DNA of 64,000 bases from Dictyostelium discoideum (lineage: Eukaryota): the NCBI GenBank assembly GCA_000004695.1, contig CM000155.2, positions 3,232,001-3,296,000 of the forward strand, given 5' to 3'. The notes below the pieces were generated by a model. The model was not told where the DNA came from, ran no database searches, and saw nothing but the letters and a program-made list of their open reading frames with translations. Position 1 is the first letter of the stretch, and every line of letters starts with the position of its first letter. Positions 2,521 to 59,705 of the stretch are shown here, piece by piece. The position numbers were made by a program, and so were the translations under genes.

Positions 2521-2621
2521 TAGCTTTTTTTTGAATTGGATAACGCAATTATTAGTTGCTTCTCCTTGAGATGCTAGATCTTATTTTATTTGTAGTTTTT
2601 TACAGATAAAAGAGGGGTTAG

Positions 2622-2630
<9 letters not shown>
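2521..2630 (+). repeat. ~100-bp repeat (copy A) ending in gaggggttagtttac followed by a 36-nt poly-T. A second copy lies upstream of the other tRNA gene (59825-59925) in the same orientation relative to the tRNA.
   Basis: ~85% identity between 2535-2630 and the reverse complement of 59825-59925 (ataacgcaattattagttgctyctccttgagatgctagatct...aaaagaggggttagtttac). Confidence 0.75.
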
Positions 2631-2667
<37 letters not shown>

Positions 2668-2949
2668 GGTTCAAATTTTGAATTGTATTATTACTTTTGA
2701 TTAAAACATCTTTTTTGTCCAAATTTTTTATTATATCATCAGCTTCATGATTGATGTTAATGACATATTTGAATTGTTTTTTTTTTATTTGAGTTTTATC
2801 CACAATTTCACTTATTTTTTGTAGGCATTTGTGTTGCTTAATATTTGTGGTGTTGTTTGTAATTTTCATCTTATTTTCTTTCTATTTTTATTTAACTTAA
2901 CCCAGAATTTTAACTTTTTTAAGTTAATCAGAAAATTTCCTTAAGTTCC

Positions 2950-2982
<33 letters not shown>

Positions 2983-3026
2983 TTTGTAGCCAAATTGATG
3001 TAAATTTTTAAAATTTCATCAAAAAT

Positions 3027-3099
3027 GCCTGGATGGCTCAGTAGGCAGAGCGAGCGGCTGTTAACCGCTAGGTCCATGGTTCGATCCCATGTCTAGGCG
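3027..3099 (+). tRNA. tRNA-Asn (anticodon GTT).
   Basis: Cloverleaf: acceptor GCCTGGA/TCTAGGC, D-arm GCTC...GAGC, anticodon stem AGCGG/CCGCT with loop CTGTTAA, T-arm CATGG-TTCGATC-CCATG, discriminator G. Confidence 0.9.
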
Positions 3100-3132
3100 A
3101 TACTTTTCTATGAGAATAGAATTAGATCGCAG

Positions 3133-3143
3133 GTTCAATTCTA
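3133..3143 (+). promoter_or_regulatory. External B box (gGTTCAATTC), 34 nt downstream of tRNA-Asn.
   Basis: Match to the B-box consensus GGTTCGANTCC outside the tRNA body. Dictyostelium tRNA genes are known to carry such ex-B boxes. Confidence 0.6.
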
Positions 3144-3365
3144 TCATTGGAATGGAAAAAAATATTATTTATTAAATAAAAGTATTTATAATTGCTTATT
3201 TCCTTTAATGGATAAACTGTGATTTATTAATTTTTATAATTAGAAAAAAAAAAAAAAAAAAAGAAAGGTTTTTAAAACAGTTTAAAACTTGTAATTTAAT
3301 AAATTTATTTATTTATTTATTTAATGTTATGATTTCAAATCAAGTAATTAGTAACACTGAAATTA

Positions 3366-4304
3366 CTAATTATAACGATTTGCATGACCATAACCTTTAT
3401 TATGACCAGCAGTAAAAGTTTTTAAAGTATAAATATACTTTTTTAAATGTGAATGATTTGGATATTGTTGTTCAAGTTTAGTTGAATATTTGTCTACTTT
3501 AATAATATATTTATTTAATAGACCAACACAATATTTTAAAGCTAAGTCAATTGAACCAAGTTGAATTGCTCTAACTTTAACAAAGTTTGTTAATAAAATT
3601 TCATTGATTTCCATTTTGAATGAACCACAATCATTGATCATTAAATTACAAAGTTCAAAATATTTAAAGAATTTTTTGAAATTTTTTGATTCTCTAATTT
3701 CATTCTCAACATATAAAGTTGAAGTACAAGAGGAAGCAGTAATTGTCATACCGAAATCACCATGTCTTGAATTGAAATAATCTTCAATGGAAAGTGATGA
3801 ATTTAATGATTTATATTTATTGGTTTTAATGGCACTTCTACTCCAATATTCAAAATCTCTAATTAATAAATCAACAGATTCTTTAACACCAACTCTATAG
3901 TATTCATCAAATAATCTCCAAATTTCACGACCAAATGGATCATGACTCTTACTTGATCTATCCATTAAATTATCCACATAATCCTCTTCATAATTACGTG
4001 ATTCATATATGTAATCATCTAAAATGAAAAGAAAATCCAACAATTTTGAATTTACCATATATTCATCCTTTTCACCCAATGGAAAATTCAAAGCAGCAAT
4101 TTTACCAATTTCATTCTTTTTTACATAATTCACAGCATTTTCATAGTTTTGAAAAAATTGTTTAACATATTCCATTTCTTGATTTTCAAAATCTTTATCA
4201 AATGGACTACTTTTAAAATCCCAAGGAAGAGTATACTTTGGAATTCTAATTTCTTGATCCAAAAATTGATTTTTATCCCAAGTAAATTTTATATCATAAT
4301 CCAT
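3366..4304 (-). CDS. Class I (microbial-type) terpene synthase, 312 aa, single exon.
   Basis: Aspartate-rich motif ILDDYIYE (DDxxD/E). NSE/DTE motif NDCGSFKME ((N,D)Dxx(S,T)xxxE). RY pair near the C-terminus (NRYN). Size and architecture fit Dictyostelium TPS genes. Confidence 0.85.
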   Translation of the reverse strand: MDYDIKFTWDKNQFLDQEIRIPKYTLPWDFKSSPFDKDFENQEMEYVKQFFQNYENAVNYVKKNEIGKIAALNFPLGEKDEYMVNSKLLDFLFILDDYIYESRNYEEDYVDNLMDRSSKSHDPFGREIWRLFDEYYRVGVKESVDLLIRDFEYWSRSAIKTNKYKSLNSSLSIEDYFNSRHGDFGMTITASSCTSTLYVENEIRESKNFKKFFKYFELCNLMINDCGSFKMEINEILLTNFVKVRAIQLGSIDLALKYCVGLLNKYIIKVDKYSTKLEQQYPNHSHLKKYIYTLKTFTAGHNKGYGHANRYN

Positions 4305-4525
4305 TTTTTTAAATTTTTTTTTTTTTTTTTTTAATAATTTTTATTTATGATTCAAAATTTTGGAAATATTTGATCAATTTAAATATAAAAAAAAAATGAT
4401 AAAAAAAAAAAAAAATAATAAAAAAAAAAAAAAAATAATAATTAAAAAAAAAAATTATTCTCTTAATTTGGAAATAAAAACAGTTTGATCCCTAATTTAT
4501 TATAAAAAATTTAAAATAAACTAAA

Positions 4526-4700
4526 ATATATTCAAACTTTTTAATATTTGTTCAACTGATGAAGATAAACTTCTTTGTTAACTACATCAGTAGAACAAAT
4601 ATTAAAAAGTTTGAATATTATTTAATTTATTTTAAATTAATATTCAAACTTTTTAATATTTGTTCAACTGATGTAGTTAACAAAGAAGATAAAATTAATT
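4526..4700. repeat. Nested palindrome / foldback structure in the TPS-P450 bidirectional promoter. Arm aatattcaaactttttaatatttgttc occurs direct (4528-4553), inverted (4593-4618) and direct again (4640-4667), with a partly palindromic core around gttaac.
   Basis: Read directly. A near-perfect hairpin is possible over 4528-4618. Confidence 0.8.
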
Positions 4701-4909
4701 AATTGAATGTTTTTATTTTGGAAATGGTCTTTTTATCCACGTAATAAACTGTTAATTAAAAAATAACAATCAGATTATAAAAAAAAAAAAATTATATTTT
4801 TAACAGATTTACCCTCAAAATATCAAAGGGGTTTTTTTTTTTTTAATTTTCCAAAAAAAAAAAAAAAAAAAAAAAAAACCAGTTGTGTTTTTTTAGGGCT
4901 TTATAAAAA

Positions 4910-4945
<36 letters not shown>

Positions 4946-4988
4946 TATATTAATTTTTTTTTTTTTGGAATGATATAATTTAAAGAAA

Positions 4989-5480
4989 ATGATTTTATTA
5001 ACACTTTTATATTTAATTATTTTTTATATTATAATAGATTTTATAAAAAAAAATTATAAAACAAAAAATCAATTACCATCACCATTAGGAATTGCATTAC
5101 CAATTATTGGTCATTTACATTTATTACGTACCGATCCATATAAAACATTAGCTAAAGCATCGAAAAAAACAGAACATGGTATTTTAAAATGTTGGAATGG
5201 TGAGCATTTAATGGTTGTAGTTGATAATCCATCAATAATTAAACAAATGTATGTAAATACAAATAATTTTACAGATAGACCACAAACCAAAGTATTTGAA
5301 ATCATTTCAAGAAATTATAAAAATAGTGGTTTTGCAAATGGTGAAAAATGGAAACATCTCAGAGGTTTATATGCACCAAGTTTTACAAAAATTAAATCAA
5401 GACCACATGAAAATATAATTTTAAAATATGTAAATTTTGAAATTAAATCTTTAAAAAATCATGCAATTACAAATTCAATT
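4989..5480 (+). CDS. Cytochrome P450, exon 1 of 2 (164 codons; membrane anchor and Pro-rich hinge LPSPLGIALPIIGHLHLL). Donor caattg|GTAAGT, phase 0.
   Basis: Typical P450 N-terminus. GTAAGT sits directly after codon 164. The ORF otherwise runs into C10/T-rich junk. Confidence 0.85.
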
Positions 5481-5587
5481 GTAAGTTTGACCCCCCCCCC
5501 CCTTTTTTTTATTTATTTTTAAATTTTAATTAATAAATCATTATTAACTTTTTCTTTTTTATTTTCTATTAATAATAAAATAAATAG

Positions 5588-6571
5588 TATAATCCATTTT
5601 TAATTGAAAATATTAATTCATTTGGTACAAAAGTTATTACAGAAATTATATTTGGTAGAGAGTTTAGTGAAAATGAAGTTTACTCATTAATTGGACCAAT
5701 GAATAAATTATTTGGTATATTGGATACACCATTTCCATCAGAGAGTATATCATTTTTAAAACCATTTTATAGAAGATCTTATAAAGAATGTGATAAACAA
5801 TGTGAAGAATTATTTAAATTGGTTGAAAAAGTTTATGATGATCATTTATTGAATCTAGACAAAGACAACCCAAAAGATGTAATGGATGTAATGATTGTTG
5901 AAACTGATTTCAAAGAAAAGGATCATGTAATTTGTATATGTTGTGATTTATTAATGGGTACAAAAGATACATTCAATACAATTGTTTTATGGTTTTTTGT
6001 ATTAATGATAAATTATCAAGATGTGCAATTGAAGGGATATCAAGAGATAATCAAGGTTTTGGAATGCACAGGTCGAGATCATGTAACAATTGAAGATATC
6101 GATAAATTACCATACATTGATGGAATTATTAAAGAAATCTCAAGAATTCATCCAGCAGGTCCTTTATCAGTACCAAGAACTGCAATCAATGATATAATGA
6201 TCAATGGTTATTTCATTCCAAAAGGTTGTCATGTTTTTCAAAATACTTATGGTGCAGTTTATAATTATATGAAAGAATCTGATGAACCTTGTAAAATGAA
6301 ACCAGAAAGATGGATTGAAAATGAAAAATTAAGAAAAGATGGTAAATTAGACCCAACTAATGATTTAGCATTGATTTCATTACCTTTTTCAAGCGGAATT
6401 AGAAATTGTCCTGGTGTTGGTTTTGCAGAGTATGAATTATTCTTATTATTTTCAAATATCATTTTAAATTTTCATTTATCAAGTCCAAATAATCTAAAAC
6501 TCAATGAAAGTGGTCATTTTGGTCTTACAATGAAACCATTTCCATTTTTAGTTGATTTAAAATTAAGATAA
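5588..6571 (+). CDS. Cytochrome P450, exon 2 of 2 (327 codons; EXXR = EISR, PERW, heme loop FSSGIRNCPG). The total protein is about 491 aa.
   Basis: Acceptor aaatAG at 5586-5587, then the frame is open from 5588 (YNPFLIENINSFG...). Canonical FxxGxRxCxG cysteine ligand motif. TAA stop at 6569-6571. Confidence 0.85.
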   Translation, partial: YNPFLIENINSFGTKVITEIIFGREFSENEVYSLIGPMNKLFGILDTPFPSESISFLKPFYRRSYKECDKQCEELFKLVEKVYDDHLLNLDKDNPKDVMDVMIVETDFKEKDHVICICCDLLMGTKDTFNTIVLWFFVLMINYQDVQLKGYQEIIKVLECTGRDHVTIEDIDKLPYIDGIIKEISRIHPAGPLSVPRTAINDIMINGYFIPKGCHVFQNTYGAVYNYMKESDEPCKMKPERWIENEKLRKDGKLDPTNDLALISLPFSSGIRNCPGVGFAEYELFLLFSNIILNFHLSSPNNLKLNESGHFGLTMKPFPFLVDLKLR

Positions 6572-6980: not shown

Positions 6981-7230
6981 ATGTCACAAAATGAATATGA
7001 CAAAAGTAATTCACTTTTAAATATATTTTCAATAAAAAAAATAACGTTAGAGAATGAAACTCTACTAAATTCAAAGATACCATGGGAAATAATTAAGAAT
7101 GGTAATGTTATTGATTTAGGTTGTGGTAATGGATGGTTTTGTAGAGAAATGATTGAAAAAGGTGTAAACCAAATTATTGGTGTTGACATTTCTGAAAAAT
7201 TAATTAAAAAAGCAATAGAATTAAATAAAG

Positions 7231-7279
<49 letters not shown>

Positions 7280-7460
7280 AAAATTAAAATATTATGTCAC
7301 TGATTTAGATAATTTCCAACTTAATGAAACTCCTTTTAATTCATTAATTGGTTCATTTGATTTTGCATTTAGTTCATTTGTAACTCATTATCTATCAGAT
7401 TTAGAATCATATTTTAAAAAAGTTTACAATTTATTAAAATCAAATAATAATAATAATAAT

Positions 7461-7530
<70 letters not shown>

Positions 7531-7889
7531 GAGGTAGTAGTTTTATATTTTTAGCAGAACATCCAATGAGAACTTCAACAAAATGTATTGAAAATAAATT
7601 TATAAATCATAAATTTGAAGGTGATGAAAATTCAAAAATGGTTTGGCCAATTTCAGATTATAGTGAAGAAGGTAAAAGAGTAACTAATTGGGCTGGATCA
7701 AGTGGAATTATTAAATATCATTATACAATTGAAACTTATGTAAACACTTTAATTAAAGTAGGTTTTAAAATTGATTATCTAGGTGAATTAAATCTTGTAG
7801 AAAGACAATTACAATTTAGTAATTCTGGTGATATATCTATAGAAGCAAATAGACCATTTACACTATTTATTAAAGTGTCAAAAAATTAA
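6981..7889 (+). CDS. Class I SAM-dependent methyltransferase, paralog 1 (302 aa). Contains N14 and ~N40 Asn-tract insertions.
   Basis: Motif I VIDLGCGNGWF (GxGxG), post-I acidic IGVDIS, motif II FDFAFSS. 85-90% identical to the ORF at 9196-9987 outside the Asn tracts. Confidence 0.8.
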
Positions 7890-9195: not shown

Positions 9196-9987
9196 ATGTC
9201 ACAAAATGAATATGACAAAAATGATTCACTTTTTAATAAATTTTCAAATAAAAATTTAACTATAGAGAATGAAACTCTACTATTTTCAATGATACCATGG
9301 GAAATTGTTAAGAATGGAAATGTTATTGATTTTGGTTGTGGTAATGGATGGTTTTGTAGAGAAATGATTGAAAAAGGTGTAAACCAAATTATTGGTGTTG
9401 ACATTTCTGAAAAATTAATTAAAAAAGCAATAGAATTAAATAAAGATAATAATGAAAAATCAAAATATTATGTCACTGATTTAGATAATTTCCAACTTAA
9501 TGAAACTCCTTTTAATTCATTAATTGGTTCATTTGATTTTGCATTTAGTTCATATTTAACTCATTATTTATCAGATTTAGAATCATTTTTTAAAAAAGTT
9601 TACAATTTATTAAAATCAAATAATAATAATGGTAGTAGTTTTATATTTTTTGCAGAACATCCAATGAGAACTTCAACAAAATGTATTGAAAATAAATTTA
9701 TTAGTCATAAATTTGAAGGTGATGAAAATTCAAAAATGGTTTGGCCAATTTCAAATTATAGTGAAGAAGGTAAAAGAGTTACTAAATGGGCTGGATCAAA
9801 TGGAATTGTTAAATATCATTATACAATTGAAACTTATGTAAACACTTTAATTAAAGTAGGTTTTAAAATTGATTATATAGGTGAATTAAATCTTGTAGAA
9901 AAACAATTACAACTTTGCAATTCTGGTGATATAACAATAGAAGCAAATAGTCCATTTACACTATTTATTAAAGTAATAAAAAATTAA
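9196..9987 (+). CDS. Class I SAM-dependent methyltransferase, paralog 2 (263 aa, no Asn tracts).
   Basis: Same motifs as 6981-7889. Tandem duplicate 2.2 kb downstream. Confidence 0.8.
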   Translation: MSQNEYDKNDSLFNKFSNKNLTIENETLLFSMIPWEIVKNGNVIDFGCGNGWFCREMIEKGVNQIIGVDISEKLIKKAIELNKDNNEKSKYYVTDLDNFQLNETPFNSLIGSFDFAFSSYLTHYLSDLESFFKKVYNLLKSNNNNGSSFIFFAEHPMRTSTKCIENKFISHKFEGDENSKMVWPISNYSEEGKRVTKWAGSNGIVKYHYTIETYVNTLIKVGFKIDYIGELNLVEKQLQLCNSGDITIEANSPFTLFIKVIKN

Positions 9988-11241: not shown

Positions 11242-13134
11242 ATGACATCAATTGGTATAGATTTAGGAACAACATATTCTTGTGTTGGTGTTTGGTTGAA
11301 TGATCGTGTTGAAATTATTGCAAATGATCAAGGTAATAGAACTACTCCATCATATGTTGCATTCAATGATACAGAGCGTTTAATTGGTGATGCTGCAAAG
11401 AATCAAGTTGCAATGAATCCAATAAATACAGTTTTCGATGCAAAACGTTTAATTGGTAGGAAATTTTCAGATAGTGTTGTTCAAAGTGATATGAAACATT
11501 GGCCATTTAAAGTTATAACAAATAAAAACGATGATAAACCATTAATTCAAGTTGATTTCAAAGGTGAAACTAAAACATTCTCACCTGAAGAAATTTCATC
11601 AATGGTATTATCAAAAATGAAAGAAACTGCTGAATCATATTTAGGTAAACCTGTTAACAATGCAGTTATAACAGTTCCAGCTTATTTCAATGATGGACAA
11701 CGTCAAGCAACTAAGGATGCTGGTACAATTTCAAAATTAAATGTTCAACGTATCATTAATGAACCAAGTGCTGCTGCTATTGCATATGGTTTAGATAAGA
11801 AAGGTAGTAAAAGTGGTGAAATAAAAGTTTTAATATTCGATTTGGGTGGTGGTACATTTGATGTTTCATTACTATCAATTGATGATGGTGTATTTGAAGT
11901 TTTAGCAACAGCTGGTGATACTCATTTAGGTGGTGAAGATTTTGATAATCGTTTAGTGAATCACTTTGTAGATGAATTCAAACGTAAACATAAGAAGGAT
12001 ATAATGGGTAACCAACGTGCTCTTCGTCGTTTGAGAACTGCATGTGAACGTGCAAAAAGAACACTATCATCATCATCTCAAGCATCAGTTGAAATTGATT
12101 CACTTTATGATGGTATTGATTTCTATACCTCAATTACCAGAGCACGTTTTGAAGAACTTTGTTCTGACCTTTTCAATAATTGTATTGAACCAGTTGAAAA
12201 AGTTTTAAAAGATTGTAAATTGGATAAGAAATCAATAGATGAAATTGTATTAGTTGGTGGTTCAACTCGTATTCCAAAAGTTCAACAATTAATTCAAAAT
12301 CTTTTCAATGGTAAAGAATTAAATAAATCAATTAATCCTGACGAAGCCGTTGCATATGGTGCAGCAGTACAAGCTGCTATTCTATCAGGTGATAAAAGCT
12401 CAAGAATCTCTGAATTAATTTTCATTGATGTTGCACCATTATCATTGGGTATTGAAACTGTTGGTGGTGTAATGACAAACATCGTTCCAAGAAACACAAT
12501 TATCCCATGTAAAAAGACACAAACTTTTTCAACTCACACAGATAATCAAAGTGGTGTTTTAATTCAAGTTTATGAGGGTGAACGTACAATGACAAAAGAT
12601 AATAATCTATTGGGTAAATTTGAATTAACTGGTATCCCACCAGCACCACGTGGTACACCTCAAATTGAAGTTAGTTTCGATGTTGATAGTAATGGTATTT
12701 TAAATGTTACAGCTGAAGATAAAACTACTAAAAAAGTTGAAAAAATAACTATCACCAATGACAAAGGTCGTCTCTCTCTAAAAGATATTACTAAAATGGT
12801 TGAAGATGCAGAGAAATTTAAAGAACAAGATCAACAACAAAAAGAACGTATTGAATCAAAGAATAATCTTGAAAACTATATATTTTCTGTAAAAAATTCA
12901 ATTAATGACCAGAAAATCATTTCAAAACTCTCTAAATCTGATAAAAATATTATTGAATCTGAAACTGAAAGTACTCTTAAATGGTTAGAATCAAATCAAT
13001 CTGCCGAAAAGGATGAATTTAATCAAAAGATATCAGATCTTGAATCAATTGTTAACCCAATCCTTAGTAAATTCTATCAAGGTAATAATAATCCAAAACC
13101 AACCACAACTACTTTTAACCAAGATCTTGATTAA
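11242..13134 (+). CDS. Hsp70 family chaperone (630 aa, single exon). The C-terminus is ...FNQDLD rather than EEVD.
   Basis: [36 protein letters not shown] and SBD motifs across the full length. Confidence 0.95.
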
Positions 13135-14807: not shown

Positions 14808-16517
14808 ATGCCATCAATGGGTATAGATTTAGGAACAACATATTCTTGTGTTGGTGTTTGCAATGAAAAAGGTCGTATTGAAATTATTGCAAATGATCAA
14901 GGTAATAGAACTACCCCATCATATGTTTCATTTAATAATAGAGAATGTTTAATTGGAGATGATGCAATGAATCAAGTTGCAATGAATCCAGTTAATACCA
15001 TTTTCGATGTAAAACGTTTATTTGGTAGAAAATATTCAGATAGTGTTGTTCAAAGTGATATGAAACTTTGGCCATTTAAAGTTATAGCAAATAAATTTGA
15101 TGATAAACCATTAATTCAAGTTGATTTCAAAGGTGAAACTAAAACATTCTCACCTGAAGAAATTTCATCAATGGTATTATCAAAAATGAAAGAAATTGTA
15201 GAACAACACTTGGGTGAACCTGTTACAGATGCAGTTATAACAGTTCCAGCTTATTTCAATGATAGACAGCGCCATGCAACCAAATATGCAGGTACAATTT
15301 CAAATTTAAATGTATTAAGAATTATTAATGAACCAACTGCTACTGCAATTGCATATGGTTTACATAGGAGAGGTATTGATGATATGAAAGTTTTAATAAT
15401 CGATCTAGGTGGTGGTACATTTGATGTTTCATTATTCAATATAGAAGATGGTATATATGAAATTTTATTATCAGGTGGTGACAATCATTTAGGTGGTGCG
15501 GATTTTAATAATCGTTTAATGAATCACTTTATAGATGAATTTAAACTTAAACATAAAAAAGATATAACCAATAATCAACGTGCTATTTTTCGTTTAAGAA
15601 CTGCATGTGAACGTGCAAAGAGAACTTTATCAATTTCATCATTAGCATCGATTGAAATTGACTCACTTTATGATGGTATTGATTTTTATTCAACAATTAC
15701 AAGAACACATTTTGAAAAACTTTGTTCTGACCTTTTCCATAGTTGTATCGATCATGTTGAAACAATTTTAAATAAATGTAAATTAGATAAAAGTTTAGTA
15801 GATGAAATTGTATTAGCTGGTGGTTCAACTCAAATTCCAAAGATACAAAGAATGTTTAAAGAATACTTCAATGGTAAAGAATTTAACAACTCGATTAACC
15901 CTGATGAAGTTGTTGCATATGGTGCAGCAGTACAATCTGGAGTTATTTCAGGCAAAGGTTCAAACTTTCCTCAACTTATTTTTTTAAATGTTACACCATT
16001 ATCAATGGGTATTGAAACTGTTGGTGGAATAATGACAAATCTTGTTGAAAGAAATACTCATATTCCTATTAAAAAAACGCAAACTTTTTCAACCCAATAT
16101 GATAATCAAACCAATGTTTTAATTCAAATTTATGAAGGTGAACGTACAATGACTAAAGATAATAATCTAATTGGTACATTTGAATTAAATGGTATCCCAC
16201 CAGCACCACGTGGTGTTACCCAGATTGAAGTTTGTTTTGATGTTGATATAGATGGTATATTAACAGTTAGTGCAGAAGATAAAACCACAAAAAAAGTTCA
16301 AAAAATCACCATCTCCAATATTAATGATCATCTCTCAAAAGTAGAGATTGAAAAAATGATAGTAGATGGTGAGAAATTTAAACAACAAGATCAACAACAA
16401 AAAAAAGAACTTATTGAATCAAATTATAAAATATATTGTGGTGATGAAAACACATTAGATTTTGAAATTACTCAAAAATTGTTAGGATCAGCTCAATCTA
16501 CTGAAATGAACGAATGA
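14808..16517 (+). CDS. Divergent Hsp70 paralog (569 aa). Lacks the C-terminal lid/tail and has many substitutions (about 75% identical to 11242-13134).
   Basis: Conserved NBD and SBD-beta motifs are retained. It ends soon after the QQDQQQK segment. Confidence 0.85.
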
Positions 16518-21626: not shown

Positions 21627-23171
21627 TTAAAGAATTGTTGGTAAAGAATCGTAACCATTTGTAGCAGGTAAAGTTTCTCTTTTCGAATAATAGGGTTCAA
21701 GTACTACATCTTTAGGGAAATTTCTGAGACGTGGTTCACCTGTTGATACATCGATAGTGAGTTGAAGTATTTTTGTAAATTGAGGACATTCTGAAAGAAA
21801 ATCTGGAAGGGTTTTCTTTGCACCAGCAGTATCATCAGCCTTTACTAAATAATGACGAATACGTTTTTCAGGATCGGGATCATCTACTTTATAGCCAACT
21901 GCGAAATGGCCAGCATGACGTTCACTGAAACGAATTAAAAAGGTGCCTTGCTCTTCATTACGAAGGGCTTCTTCGACACTTTGACGAGAAATGAAACCAT
22001 AGATGAGACCCGATTGCCACATGGAGCAAACGTGACGTTGATAACGTAGTTTTTGTAAACCTTTACCAAACCAAATCCAAAATGAATCAAAACTAGATTG
22101 AGGGATCATTGGTTTACTTCCGAAAAATTGATGATGAATGTACATGAGTTCGTGACGTGATAGGTAACGAGTTGGTTTCATAAAGTCTTGACGAGTTGCA
22201 CGCAAGAAATGTCTTTGAAGTTTATTGGCATAGGAAGCCCAAGGTATTTCATTGTTATTTCCAAAGGAATCTTTCTTTAGGAGAGTACCATCTGATTCTT
22301 CATATTGACATTCATTGGTGATAACGATGAATGGTGAGGTTGGTGGTGATTCAATGTTTACAGCGGTACCACCAACCACTTGAACTTGCATTCCAAATTT
22401 GAGGGTTACTGGATTCTTTCTGGTACCATTTAAAAATTTGAGATGATATTTTGCCAAACGATTGGTTTCATCCATTGATACCACCTCTGTTTCAATGGTT
22501 TTTGGAGATGAAGAAGTCTTTGAGCCTTGTTGATTCTCAACGATCATTGTTGCTCTAACTTTACCGATCATTTGTAACTCTGTACGAGTGCCACAAAGTA
22601 ATTGAACGACTACTGGATCATCTTCCAATGGTTTACACTTTGTAATTACCATTGGGAATGGTTGTTCAATCACTACCAAAGCAGCGATAGTTGGTGGTGG
22701 ATTTTGTGGACGAACTAAAAGTTGTAACTCTTCATGATACAATTCCAATTGAATACTTTGAATGGTGAGTTCATGTAAAAGGAAGATAACATTTCTAATC
22801 TCTGGTGGTGATAAAACAAAGGTTTGGTCAATTTGTTGAAGTGAGGTGATCTCTGCATCAATTTGTTTTTTCAATGTATTTTGTTCATTATCCAACATTT
22901 GGAATGTCTCTTTTTGTGGGTGTGCCAACACTTGTTTTTGTACAATTTTCATCTTATCCAATTGTTCCTTTTGAGCCAAATGTAACTTTAAACATTCATT
23001 AATGATTTGTTGATGTGGTTGTAATACATTTCCATATGGTGTATTTATTAAAAGATGATCTGGTAATGGCAAATTATTATTATTACAATGTTGAATTGAT
23101 GATAATATATTTGGTTCAATTATATCATCTGGTGATCCAATTCCATTTGAGCTATTACTACTATTACTACC

Positions 23172-23203
<32 letters not shown>

Positions 23204-23457
23204 TATTATTGATATGGGTTGGAATTGGATGTAAATGTTGTGGTTCAACTGGTAATTGATGTAAAATTGGTAATTCAATTTGTTGCATTTGTGGTTGTGT
23301 TGGTTGATTTAATTGATTTTGATGATTTAATTGATTTTGATTATTTAATTGATTTTGATTATTTAATTGATTTTGATTATTTAATTGATTTTGGTGATTT
23401 AATTGATTTTGATGATTTTGATGAATTTGTTGGTGTTGTTGGTGTTGTTGTTGTTGG

Positions 23458-23522
<65 letters not shown>

Positions 23523-23870
23523 TTGTTGATGATGTTGTTGTTGTTGTTGTTGTTGTTGTTGCTGTTGTTGTTGTTGTTGTTGTTGTTGTTGCTGTTGTTG
23601 CTGTTGTTGTTGTTGTTGTTGTTGTTGTTGGAATTGGAATTGTTGTTGTTGTAAATGTTGTTGTTCTAATTGTTGTTGTTGAATTTGTGCTTGTTGTGCT
23701 TGAATTTGTGCTTGTTGTTGTTGAATTTGTTGGGCCTGTTGTTGTTGAATTTGTGCTTGATCTATTTGTGGGTTGTTAACTTGTTGAATTGGTTGCAATT
23801 GTTGTTGTAATAATTGCTGTTGTTGAATTTGTGCACCATCAATAGTTTGGAAATATGGATCAATGTTAAC
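21627..23870 (-). CDS. STAT transcription factor, main exon (747 codons). Contains the poly-Gln/His tract, coiled-coil, DNA-binding, SH2 ([15 protein letters not shown]) and C-terminal tail. Assembled protein is about 931 aa. Possibly the STATc-type member.
   Basis: SH2 FLVRES-like GTFLIRFSE and STAT-type linker/DBD similarity. Acceptor aaaaAG|GTTAAC at 23872-23871. The track ORF N-terminus [10 protein letters not shown]... is intron read-through. Confidence 0.85.
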
Positions 23871-24180
23871 CTTTTTTTTTTTTATTTTTTTTGTTTTATT
23901 TTGAAATTTAAAAAAAAAAAGACAAATTAATAATATGAAACAAGAATTTAATTTAAAATAGAAAAATAAAAAAAAATATCCAAGTAAAAATAAAAAAATG
24001 TTTATTAGAAAAAAAAAAAAAACTAATAAAAAAAAAAAATTAATAAAAAAAAAAAAAAAAAAAAAAGAAAAGATATTTTTTTTTTTTTTTTTCAAAAATC
24101 CATTATCATAATCAAAACCCTTTGAAAAAAAAAAATAAAAAAATAAAAAAAAATAAAATAAAATAATGGATGACACTTAC

Positions 24181-59605: not shown

Positions 59606-59633
59606 TCGACTAATATCAGTTAGTTTGAAAAAG

Positions 59634-59705
59634 CTCCCCATTCGGGAATCGAACCCGAGGTACCAGTGTGAAAGACTAGAGTGTTACCGACTACACCAAT
59701 GAGGA
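59634..59705 (-). tRNA. tRNA-Glu (anticodon TTC).
   Basis: Minus-strand cloverleaf: acceptor TCCTCAT/ATGGGGA, D-arm GTGT...ACAC, anticodon stem CTAGT/ACTGG with loop CTTTCAC, T-arm TCGGG-TTCGATT-CCCGA. Confidence 0.85.

Follow-up and report, generated by a model that had tools for sequence, protein, structure and literature searches.

A palindrome in the shared DdTPS8-CYP521A1 promoter of Dictyostelium discoideum as a probable lineage-specific inverted triplication

Tandem inversion duplication (TID) in Salmonella is one class of inverted triplication, and its model holds that deletions later remodel the symmetric palindromic junctions. Other inverted triplications are established as products of template switching, namely ODIRA in yeast (PMC10766183) and DUP-TRP/INV-DUP in humans (PMC11293582), and in yeast promoters the template-switch expansion of inverted repeats altered GRE2 expression (PMC13100816). 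In Dictyostelium discoideum, the terpene synthase gene DdTPS8 and the cytochrome P450 gene CYP521A1 were published as a head-to-head cluster on chromosome 6, 685 bp apart and co-expressed with a peak at 16 h of development (PMC6524965). The pair is among the few experimentally characterised amoebal biosynthetic gene clusters. No promoter study of it was found in the literature searched, and PMC6524965 never uses the word 'promoter'. What is new here is an apparent instance of a known mutational class in the promoter of this well-studied gene pair, where a long palindrome is, with a probability that we put at about 0.8, a structural mutation, specific to one lineage, of the promoter that DdTPS8 and CYP521A1 share.

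The gene pair and its palindromic repeat

The DNA analysed (the window) is a stretch of 64,000 nucleotides and is very AT-rich (~20% G+C). Its terpene synthase is, residue for residue, DdTPS8 of D. discoideum AX4 (Q54BE5 / XP_629084.1). The initial annotation of this DNA had placed the palindrome in a bidirectional TPS/P450 promoter, and rightly so, as a PF19086 gene (TPS8, -) and a PF00067 gene (CYP521A1, +) stand head to head across an intergenic spacer of 684 bp. At the position equivalent to CYP521A1, a 491-aa gene is called in the related locus L002. The start of the CYP521A1 intron (~5491-5503) carries a run of ~12 C followed by a T-run, which is unusual at this base composition.

Several other features of the neighbourhood were recorded. 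A tRNA-Asn(GTT) gene lies ~270 bp past the TPS8 stop codon (3026-3100, +) and a tRNA-Glu(TTC) gene close to the far end of the window (59633-59705, -); Dictyostelium tRNA genes are known landing sites of TRE retrotransposons. Directly downstream of CYP521A1 are two tandem paralogous genes with SAM-methyltransferase domains (6981-7889 and 9196-9987, both +). The window also contains two HSP70 paralogues (11242-13134 and 14808-16517, both +) and a gene of the Dictyostelium STAT family with STATa_Ig, Dict-STAT-coil and SH2 domains (21627-24176, -), and its GC skew is strongly positive around 23-26 kb.

Table 1 Features of the DdTPS8-CYP521A1 locus, in window coordinates
Feature	Position	Strand	Description
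DdTPS8 (terpene synthase 8) CDS	3366..4304	-	ATG at 4304; open reading frame; Pfam PF19086; exact match to TPS8_DICDI / XP_629084.1
Conserved promoter block CTCTTAATTTGGAAATAAAAACAGTTTGATCCC	4460..4492	+	31/33 invariant; just left of the rearrangement
Copy 1, forward	4508..4569	+	Flank L 4508-4527; first 34 nt of the core 4528-4561; then AAGATAAA 4562-4569
Palindrome A	4508..4638		Arms 4508-4561 / 4585-4638 (54 nt, 4 mismatches); asymmetric 23-nt loop 4562-4584
Extra DNA relative to L001, L003 and L004	4528..4639		112 bp, from alignments; frame arbitrary within the repeat
Copy 2, inverted	4570..4638	-	Reverse-complemented 49-nt core (4570-4618, substituted once, at 4592) and flank L (4619-4638, 3 substitutions)
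Palindrome B, strongest	4570..4688		Arms 4570-4618 / 4640-4688, 48/49 complementary; 21-nt spacer
Copy 3, forward	4640..4693	+	Full 49-nt core 4640-4688 and ATAAA, running on into the conserved right flank
Conserved promoter block TAACAAAGAAGATAAAATTAATTA	4678..4701	+	22/24 invariant; includes AGATAA (candidate GATA-type)
Conserved spacer block	4743-4791		45/49 invariant
Conserved spacer block	4816-4843		26/28 invariant
CYP521A1 (cytochrome P450)	4989..6571	+	Open reading frames; Pfam PF00067 on both exons
CYP521A1 exon 1	4989-5480	+	Splice sites predicted by reading the sequence
CYP521A1 intron	5481-5587	+	As above
CYP521A1 exon 2	5588-6571	+	As above

The repeat had been described as an arm that occurs direct, inverted and direct again, interleaved with a second inverted segment, and both components were recovered. 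The 34-nt core ATATTCAAACTTTTTAATATTTGTTCAACTGATG is found at 4528-4561 (+, exact), 4585-4618 (-, one mismatch) and 4640-4673 (+, exact), and ACTGATGTAGTTAACAAAGAAG only at 4570-4591 (-) and 4667-4688 (+). The arm was originally given as a 27-mer with a leading A, which is exact in copies 2 and 3, but copy 1 has T at that position. Neither the ATATTCAAACTTTTTAATATTTGTTCAACTGATG nor the ACTGATGTAGTTAACAAAGAAG pattern arose in any of 100 shuffles and no comparable inverted repeat appeared in 20 Markov simulations, upholding the judgement that the structure is far beyond random expectation. Across the 64 kb, no other inverted repeat outside low-complexity sequence has an arm score of at least 20 and a spacer of at most 60.

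The copies are not equivalent (Table 1). Copy 1 is without the 12 nt TAGTTAACAAAG present in both other copies, position 4639 is a single junction base, untemplated or ambiguous, and copy 3 is the one collinear with the single copy of the relatives. The triplicated allele is marked by the junction k-mers J1 CAACTGATGAAGATAAACTTCTTTGTTAAC and J2 TATTTTAAATTAATATTCAAACTTTTTAAT. No k-mer is unique to the single-copy allele; all of its stretches, ACTGATGTAGTTAACAAAGAAGATAAAATT included, recur in copy 3. An ATG-initiated ORF of 47 aa (4559-4702, +) spans copies 2 and 3 and exists only through the rearrangement; it had no record in the protein collection looked up and is most likely meaningless.

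Region 4528-4618 can form the hairpin first proposed for it, with a 34-bp stem, one mismatch and a 23-nt loop, and this extends to 54-61 nt at ~90% complementarity over 4508-4638 (palindrome A); the stronger palindrome, however, is that of 4570-4618 with 4640-4688 (palindrome B), in which two further pairs give 51-nt arms and a 17-nt spacer. Hairpins A and B are mutually exclusive because the middle copy is common to both. Measured from the TPS ATG (4304), the two palindrome centres are at distances of 269 and 325 bp, and from the P450 ATG (4989) at 416 and 360 bp, in fair agreement with the ~300 and ~400 bp of the initial annotation. The DNA of 4500-4715 folds at -55.5 kcal/mol, compared with -18.9 for shuffles (z = -12). 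As RNA, the two strands give predicted hairpins of -69/-68 kcal/mol (-69.4 and -68.1; z ~ -18) and of -53/-57 kcal/mol, with z from -15 to -18.

Such folds would suit a newborn hairpin-RNA or miRNA precursor, whose near-perfect 49-bp stem would be Dicer-processed, a reading compatible with an origin by triplication. The predicted stability on both strands is that of a stable precursor, and the long, near-perfect intergenic hairpin resembles reported young amoebozoan miRNAs, which have unusually long near-perfect hairpins, most D. discoideum miRNA loci being intergenic (PMC11014262; PMC6161686). However, four 15-16-mers of the arms, each tried both as RNA and as DNA or in both strand senses, are absent from the miRNA supplementary tables of PMC6161686 and PMC11014262, and an Rfam scan of 4200-5100 returned no family at the gathering score, only generic plant MIR models of long hairpins, which scored 22-35 bits where 53-86 are required. 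Neither the miRNA tables searched nor Rfam lists the hairpin, and it sits 270-420 bp upstream of both start codons. We regard a miRNA precursor as very unlikely.

Relatives and the local origin of the 112 bp

Five other genome assemblies with a TPS8 at least 90% identical were obtained from a protein search and a cluster look-up, and their loci (L001-L005) were compared with the window. L002 encodes a TPS8 protein identical to that of D. discoideum AX4, with 0/939 nt differences from the window in the gene, and has three core copies in the same structure. Over 8.3 kb it shares 99.7% identity with the window, the differences being mostly in homopolymers together with 3 substitutions, and is by its sequence an independent assembly of essentially the same lineage. 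L003 and L004, both labelled D. discoideum, differ from the window at 19 and 20 of the 939 TPS8 nucleotides (2.0-2.1%) and from each other at 7 positions only. The two D. cf. discoideum loci are more distant, L001 with 30/939 differences (3.2%) and L005 with 59/939 (6.3%). One core copy, forward, is present in each of L001, L003 and L004, and none in L005. The TPS8 coding distances give the order ((window, L002), (L003, L004)), L001, L005, and because of this tree a single gain on the AX4-type branch is most parsimonious. Logan contigs with TPS8 (L006-L010) yielded no spacer, since they end at most ~40 nt from the ATG at a poly-T run or, in the case of L006, are chimeric. In L006 (1-639; Logan SRR26869258) the 5' end of TPS8 leads through the poly-T run into an unrelated ORF of PPIP5K2_N type; the join is probably a chimera made in assembly, and the contig was left out.

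A trivial source of such a structure would be an error of cloning or assembly, such as a chimeric fold-back read; certain library and long-read methods are known to produce false palindromic joins. Nevertheless, the window and L002 have an identical structure in assemblies that differ at the homopolymers and substitutions given above, and the copies carry substitutions and a deletion that an artefact would not be expected to contain. Because two independent assemblies agree and the copies hold post-event mutations, an artefact is so unlikely that we give it next to no weight.

The spacers of L001, L003 and L004 align lengthwise with that of the window and contain exactly one forward unit with collinear flanks. 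The 112 bp do behave as the insertion that had been suspected, being missing from all three, and a linear single-copy model leaves one 112-column gap and zero mismatches. The shared promoter of AX4-type D. discoideum therefore differs structurally from that of close relatives, including two isolates named D. discoideum, by a clean 112 bp. Taking the window minus 4528-4639 as the inferred ancestor, we modelled the rearranged allele as forward sequence up to ...GAAGATAAA, then the reverse complement of L and the core, then forward sequence again from the core start, and compared it with the observed 321 nt. The model fits except for 4 substitutions (1 in the inverted core, 3 in the inverted flank), 1 extra base at the second junction and the 12-nt deletion of TAGTTAACAAAG in copy 1, which adjoins the centre of the first palindrome. 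Positions 4570-4638 match the reverse complement of L and the core with 4 substitutions in 69 nt, the local copy that a template-switch model calls for. On these alignments the 112 bp consist wholly of local sequence, and the structure is an in-situ miniature inverted triplication, with both the forward-inverted-forward arrangement and the single-copy ancestor of that class. At the level of sequence, it can be taken as established that the extra DNA came from the site itself, which state is the derived one and how the copies are arranged.

The copies also bear on the age of the event. Core differences among the window copies are 0/34 and 1/49, against 4/34 (L004) and 6/34 (L001) between lineages; the copies are far more alike than the block is between lineages, which points to a recent event. 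The left flank counts against the simple model, as 4508-4527 and 4619-4638 differ at 3/20 positions, compared with 1 difference for the adjoining 34-nt cores. At the last two of these three positions L001 agrees with copy 2, which suggests that the flank of copy 1 mutated after the triplication. Repeated, precise loss of copies, by recombination of the direct repeats, could look like a recent gain. The inferred ancestor folds at only -10.7 kcal/mol (z = -0.5), and from z = -0.5 before to z = -12 after the rearrangement it follows that the hairpin potential would be a by-product of that rearrangement. A striking palindrome in AT-rich intergenic DNA is thus possibly a mutational by-product, not a designed element or a transposon.

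L005 keeps TPS8 and the P450 gene intact, and its spacer of 2150 bp is rearranged, with the core gone and L-like and R-like flanks joined by a poly-A run. Within the same spacer (2566-3361 of the locus, GCA_054859235.1) lies a 796-bp element with 86-nt terminal inverted repeats that are 95% complementary, which accounts for the stretching of the spacer to 2150 bp. Its structure resembles that of a true insertion of a DNA transposon or foldback element, and no copy of the 796-bp element occurs in the window or the other compared loci. A promoter block of ~70 nt flanks the element as a direct duplicate (2039-2108 and 3502-3571, 1463 bp apart, 89% identity), and both of its copies are without the 34-nt core of the window repeat.

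The initial annotation had also offered a small foldback-type, thug-like insertion as the source of the palindrome, and a foldback or MITE-like element in the promoter would indeed fit an insertion as compact as this one (112 bp), with its many inverted repeats and its lack in relatives. Thug elements occur in D. discoideum, where they make up ~0.1% of the genome (PMC5633606), and the terminal-inverted-repeat element of L005 indicates that this spacer can be hit. The composition of the inserted DNA speaks against such an element, being a reverse and a forward copy of sequence already on site, and the 'empty' site of the relatives holds one unit. There is no short target-site duplication of the kind that a mobile element would leave; the only flanking repeat is the 34-49-nt unit that the triplication itself makes. 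The copy count, which covered the 64-kb window, the five ~9-kb loci L001-L005 (~45 kb) and metagenome contigs scanned with a degenerate 27-mer of the core, found no second locus, and low-stringency BLASTN of the unit against the window returned only AT-rich background at no more than 70% identity. With local sequence, one unit at the site in relatives and no other copy in ~110 kb, the mobile-element suggestion was set aside as highly improbable.

Promoter conservation and possible function

In a four-lineage alignment (window, L001, L003 and L004), 65% of the spacer positions are invariant. The 49-nt core, with 37/49 (76%) invariant, is only slightly above this background and is absent in L005; the most strongly conserved blocks are those listed in Table 1. 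Of the block at 4678-4701 there is a single intact copy, besides a partial one at 4561-4569 and an inverted partial one at 4570-4580. Through the rearrangement the promoter gained two further cores, one forward and one inverted, and a second forward GAAGATAAA (GATA-type), and the added copies are 270-420 bp from both start codons. We take CAACTG to be a Myb-type and AGATAA a GATA-type motif, and thus candidate sites; the CAACTG of the core reads CTACTG in the inverted copy 2 (A-to-T). A scan for bacterial promoters and terminators was discarded as not meaningful for a eukaryote.

The initial annotation had considered a shared regulatory element, and one form of this idea is an old, maintained palindrome, serving as a symmetric binding platform or cruciform, that was lost independently in the relatives and whose arms were kept identical by gene conversion. 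It fits the position of the palindrome in the upstream region common to two co-expressed genes (PMC6524965) and the overlap of the repeat unit with conserved blocks. Direct repeats ease precise loss, and the arms of an inverted repeat can be made alike by template switching from one to the other (PMC13100816). On the other hand, a maintained palindrome needs at least two independent precise losses (in L001 and in the ancestor of L003/L004) in addition to the absence of the core in L005, where both genes are intact. The core is merely 76% invariant, against 65% for the whole spacer. Furthermore, the spacers here are of 21-23 nt, and spacers of this length would be expected to disfavour cruciform extrusion. 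Only the window and L002 have the palindromic arrangement, which is not conserved across the lineages among L001-L005 that keep the gene pair, and the block itself is only moderately conserved and missing in L005. The shared-element claim is not supported by this comparison, and we consider a maintained palindrome distinctly unlikely.

For the recent triplication that we prefer, we would guess at neutrality or at a mild cis-regulatory effect. Judging from the sequence, a mild effect is possible and neutrality at least as likely, and nothing in it suggests a purpose-built cruciform or RNA device. A bolder version, which we think unlikely, would make it a recent cis-regulatory innovation that alters the level or coupling of DdTPS8/CYP521A1 expression (discodiene) in the AX4-type lineage, maybe a nascent hairpin-RNA locus, and, separately, a base-pair-resolved natural member of a template-switch class unseen in the human surveys. 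As a natural experiment, the 112-bp difference could show in what way bidirectional promoters are reshaped by small template-switch rearrangements.

Candidate mechanism and comparison with known systems

The ancestral state, as in the nearest relatives, would have been one forward block of 50-70 bp (flank L and the 49-nt core). On the branch of D. discoideum to which AX4 belongs, DNA synthesis may have copied through this block up to ...GAAGATAAA, switched to the opposite strand so that the core and L were copied backwards, and switched back at the core start so that the core was copied forward once more. Junction 1 would have started out as a near-perfect palindrome with ~69-nt arms around a 5-nt centre. 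Unstable long palindromes become asymmetric through deletions, and a later 12-nt deletion beside that centre, removing TAGTTAACAAAG from copy 1, would have left the asymmetric palindrome seen today. Triplications whose middle copy is inverted are the hallmark of template switching in replication, and we infer that replication template switching was the cause and that the 12-nt deletion was secondary to the triplication.

This route has its difficulties. In the four-point model the switch points are ordered 3-4-2-1 (mirror 4-3-1-2), the return point lying behind the departure point. Point 4 thus comes before point 1, and orders of this kind were unseen in human/chimp and human/human surveys and need the re-opening and re-copying of newly made duplex (PMC5453318); the order is not among the observed types, in which point 1 precedes point 4. 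With the return behind the departure, a simple one-fork switch-and-return is therefore insufficient, and iterative switching or two successive events would be needed. No convincing microhomology or pre-existing short inverted repeat was found at either junction, where the AT-only sequence makes the test weak. At junction 1 the inferred ancestor reads GAAGATAAAATTAATT and is without a CTTC partner. Near junction 2 there are AT-only self-complementary hexamers (AAATTT, TTTAAA, AATATT) and a small quasi-palindrome at 4659-4684, in an AT-only context that again weakens the test.

Thug and other Dictyostelium foldback or MITE transposons resemble the structure in being short, AT-rich and built of inverted repeats. 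It differs from them in consisting of local sequence with one orthologous copy in relatives, without target-site duplication and without dispersed copies in the ~110 kb compared. With DUP-TRP/INV-DUP, ODIRA and TID it has in common three copies of which the middle one is inverted, with one head-to-head and one tail-to-tail junction, and the 12-nt deletion beside junction 1 is like the remodelling of the TID model. In contrast to these systems, whose copies measure kilobases to megabases, each copy here is 50-70 bp, and at the AT-only junctions, unlike theirs, neither an inverted low-copy repeat nor a clear short one was seen. A replication origin, needed for ODIRA, is implausible within a 50-70-bp unit. 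Moreover, unlike the large amplifications, the D. discoideum triplication is fixed in a promoter and not selected as a gene amplification.

In scale the event is closer to short template-switch mutations (PMC5453318, Loytynoja & Goldman 2017), in which nearby sequence is likewise reverse-copied over tens of bp to give a hairpin-forming inverted repeat. Unlike the events of the four-point survey, the 3-4-2-1 order adds a direct duplication, a class that is theoretically possible and was unobserved there (PMC5453318). The yeast promoter cases differ in that existing imperfect repeats were extended or homogenised by a few bases, whereas here a whole block was triplicated. What the D. discoideum promoter has in common with the GRE2 case (PMC13100816) is the lineage-specific growth of an inverted repeat in a promoter, found by comparative genomics and with possible consequences for transcription-factor binding.
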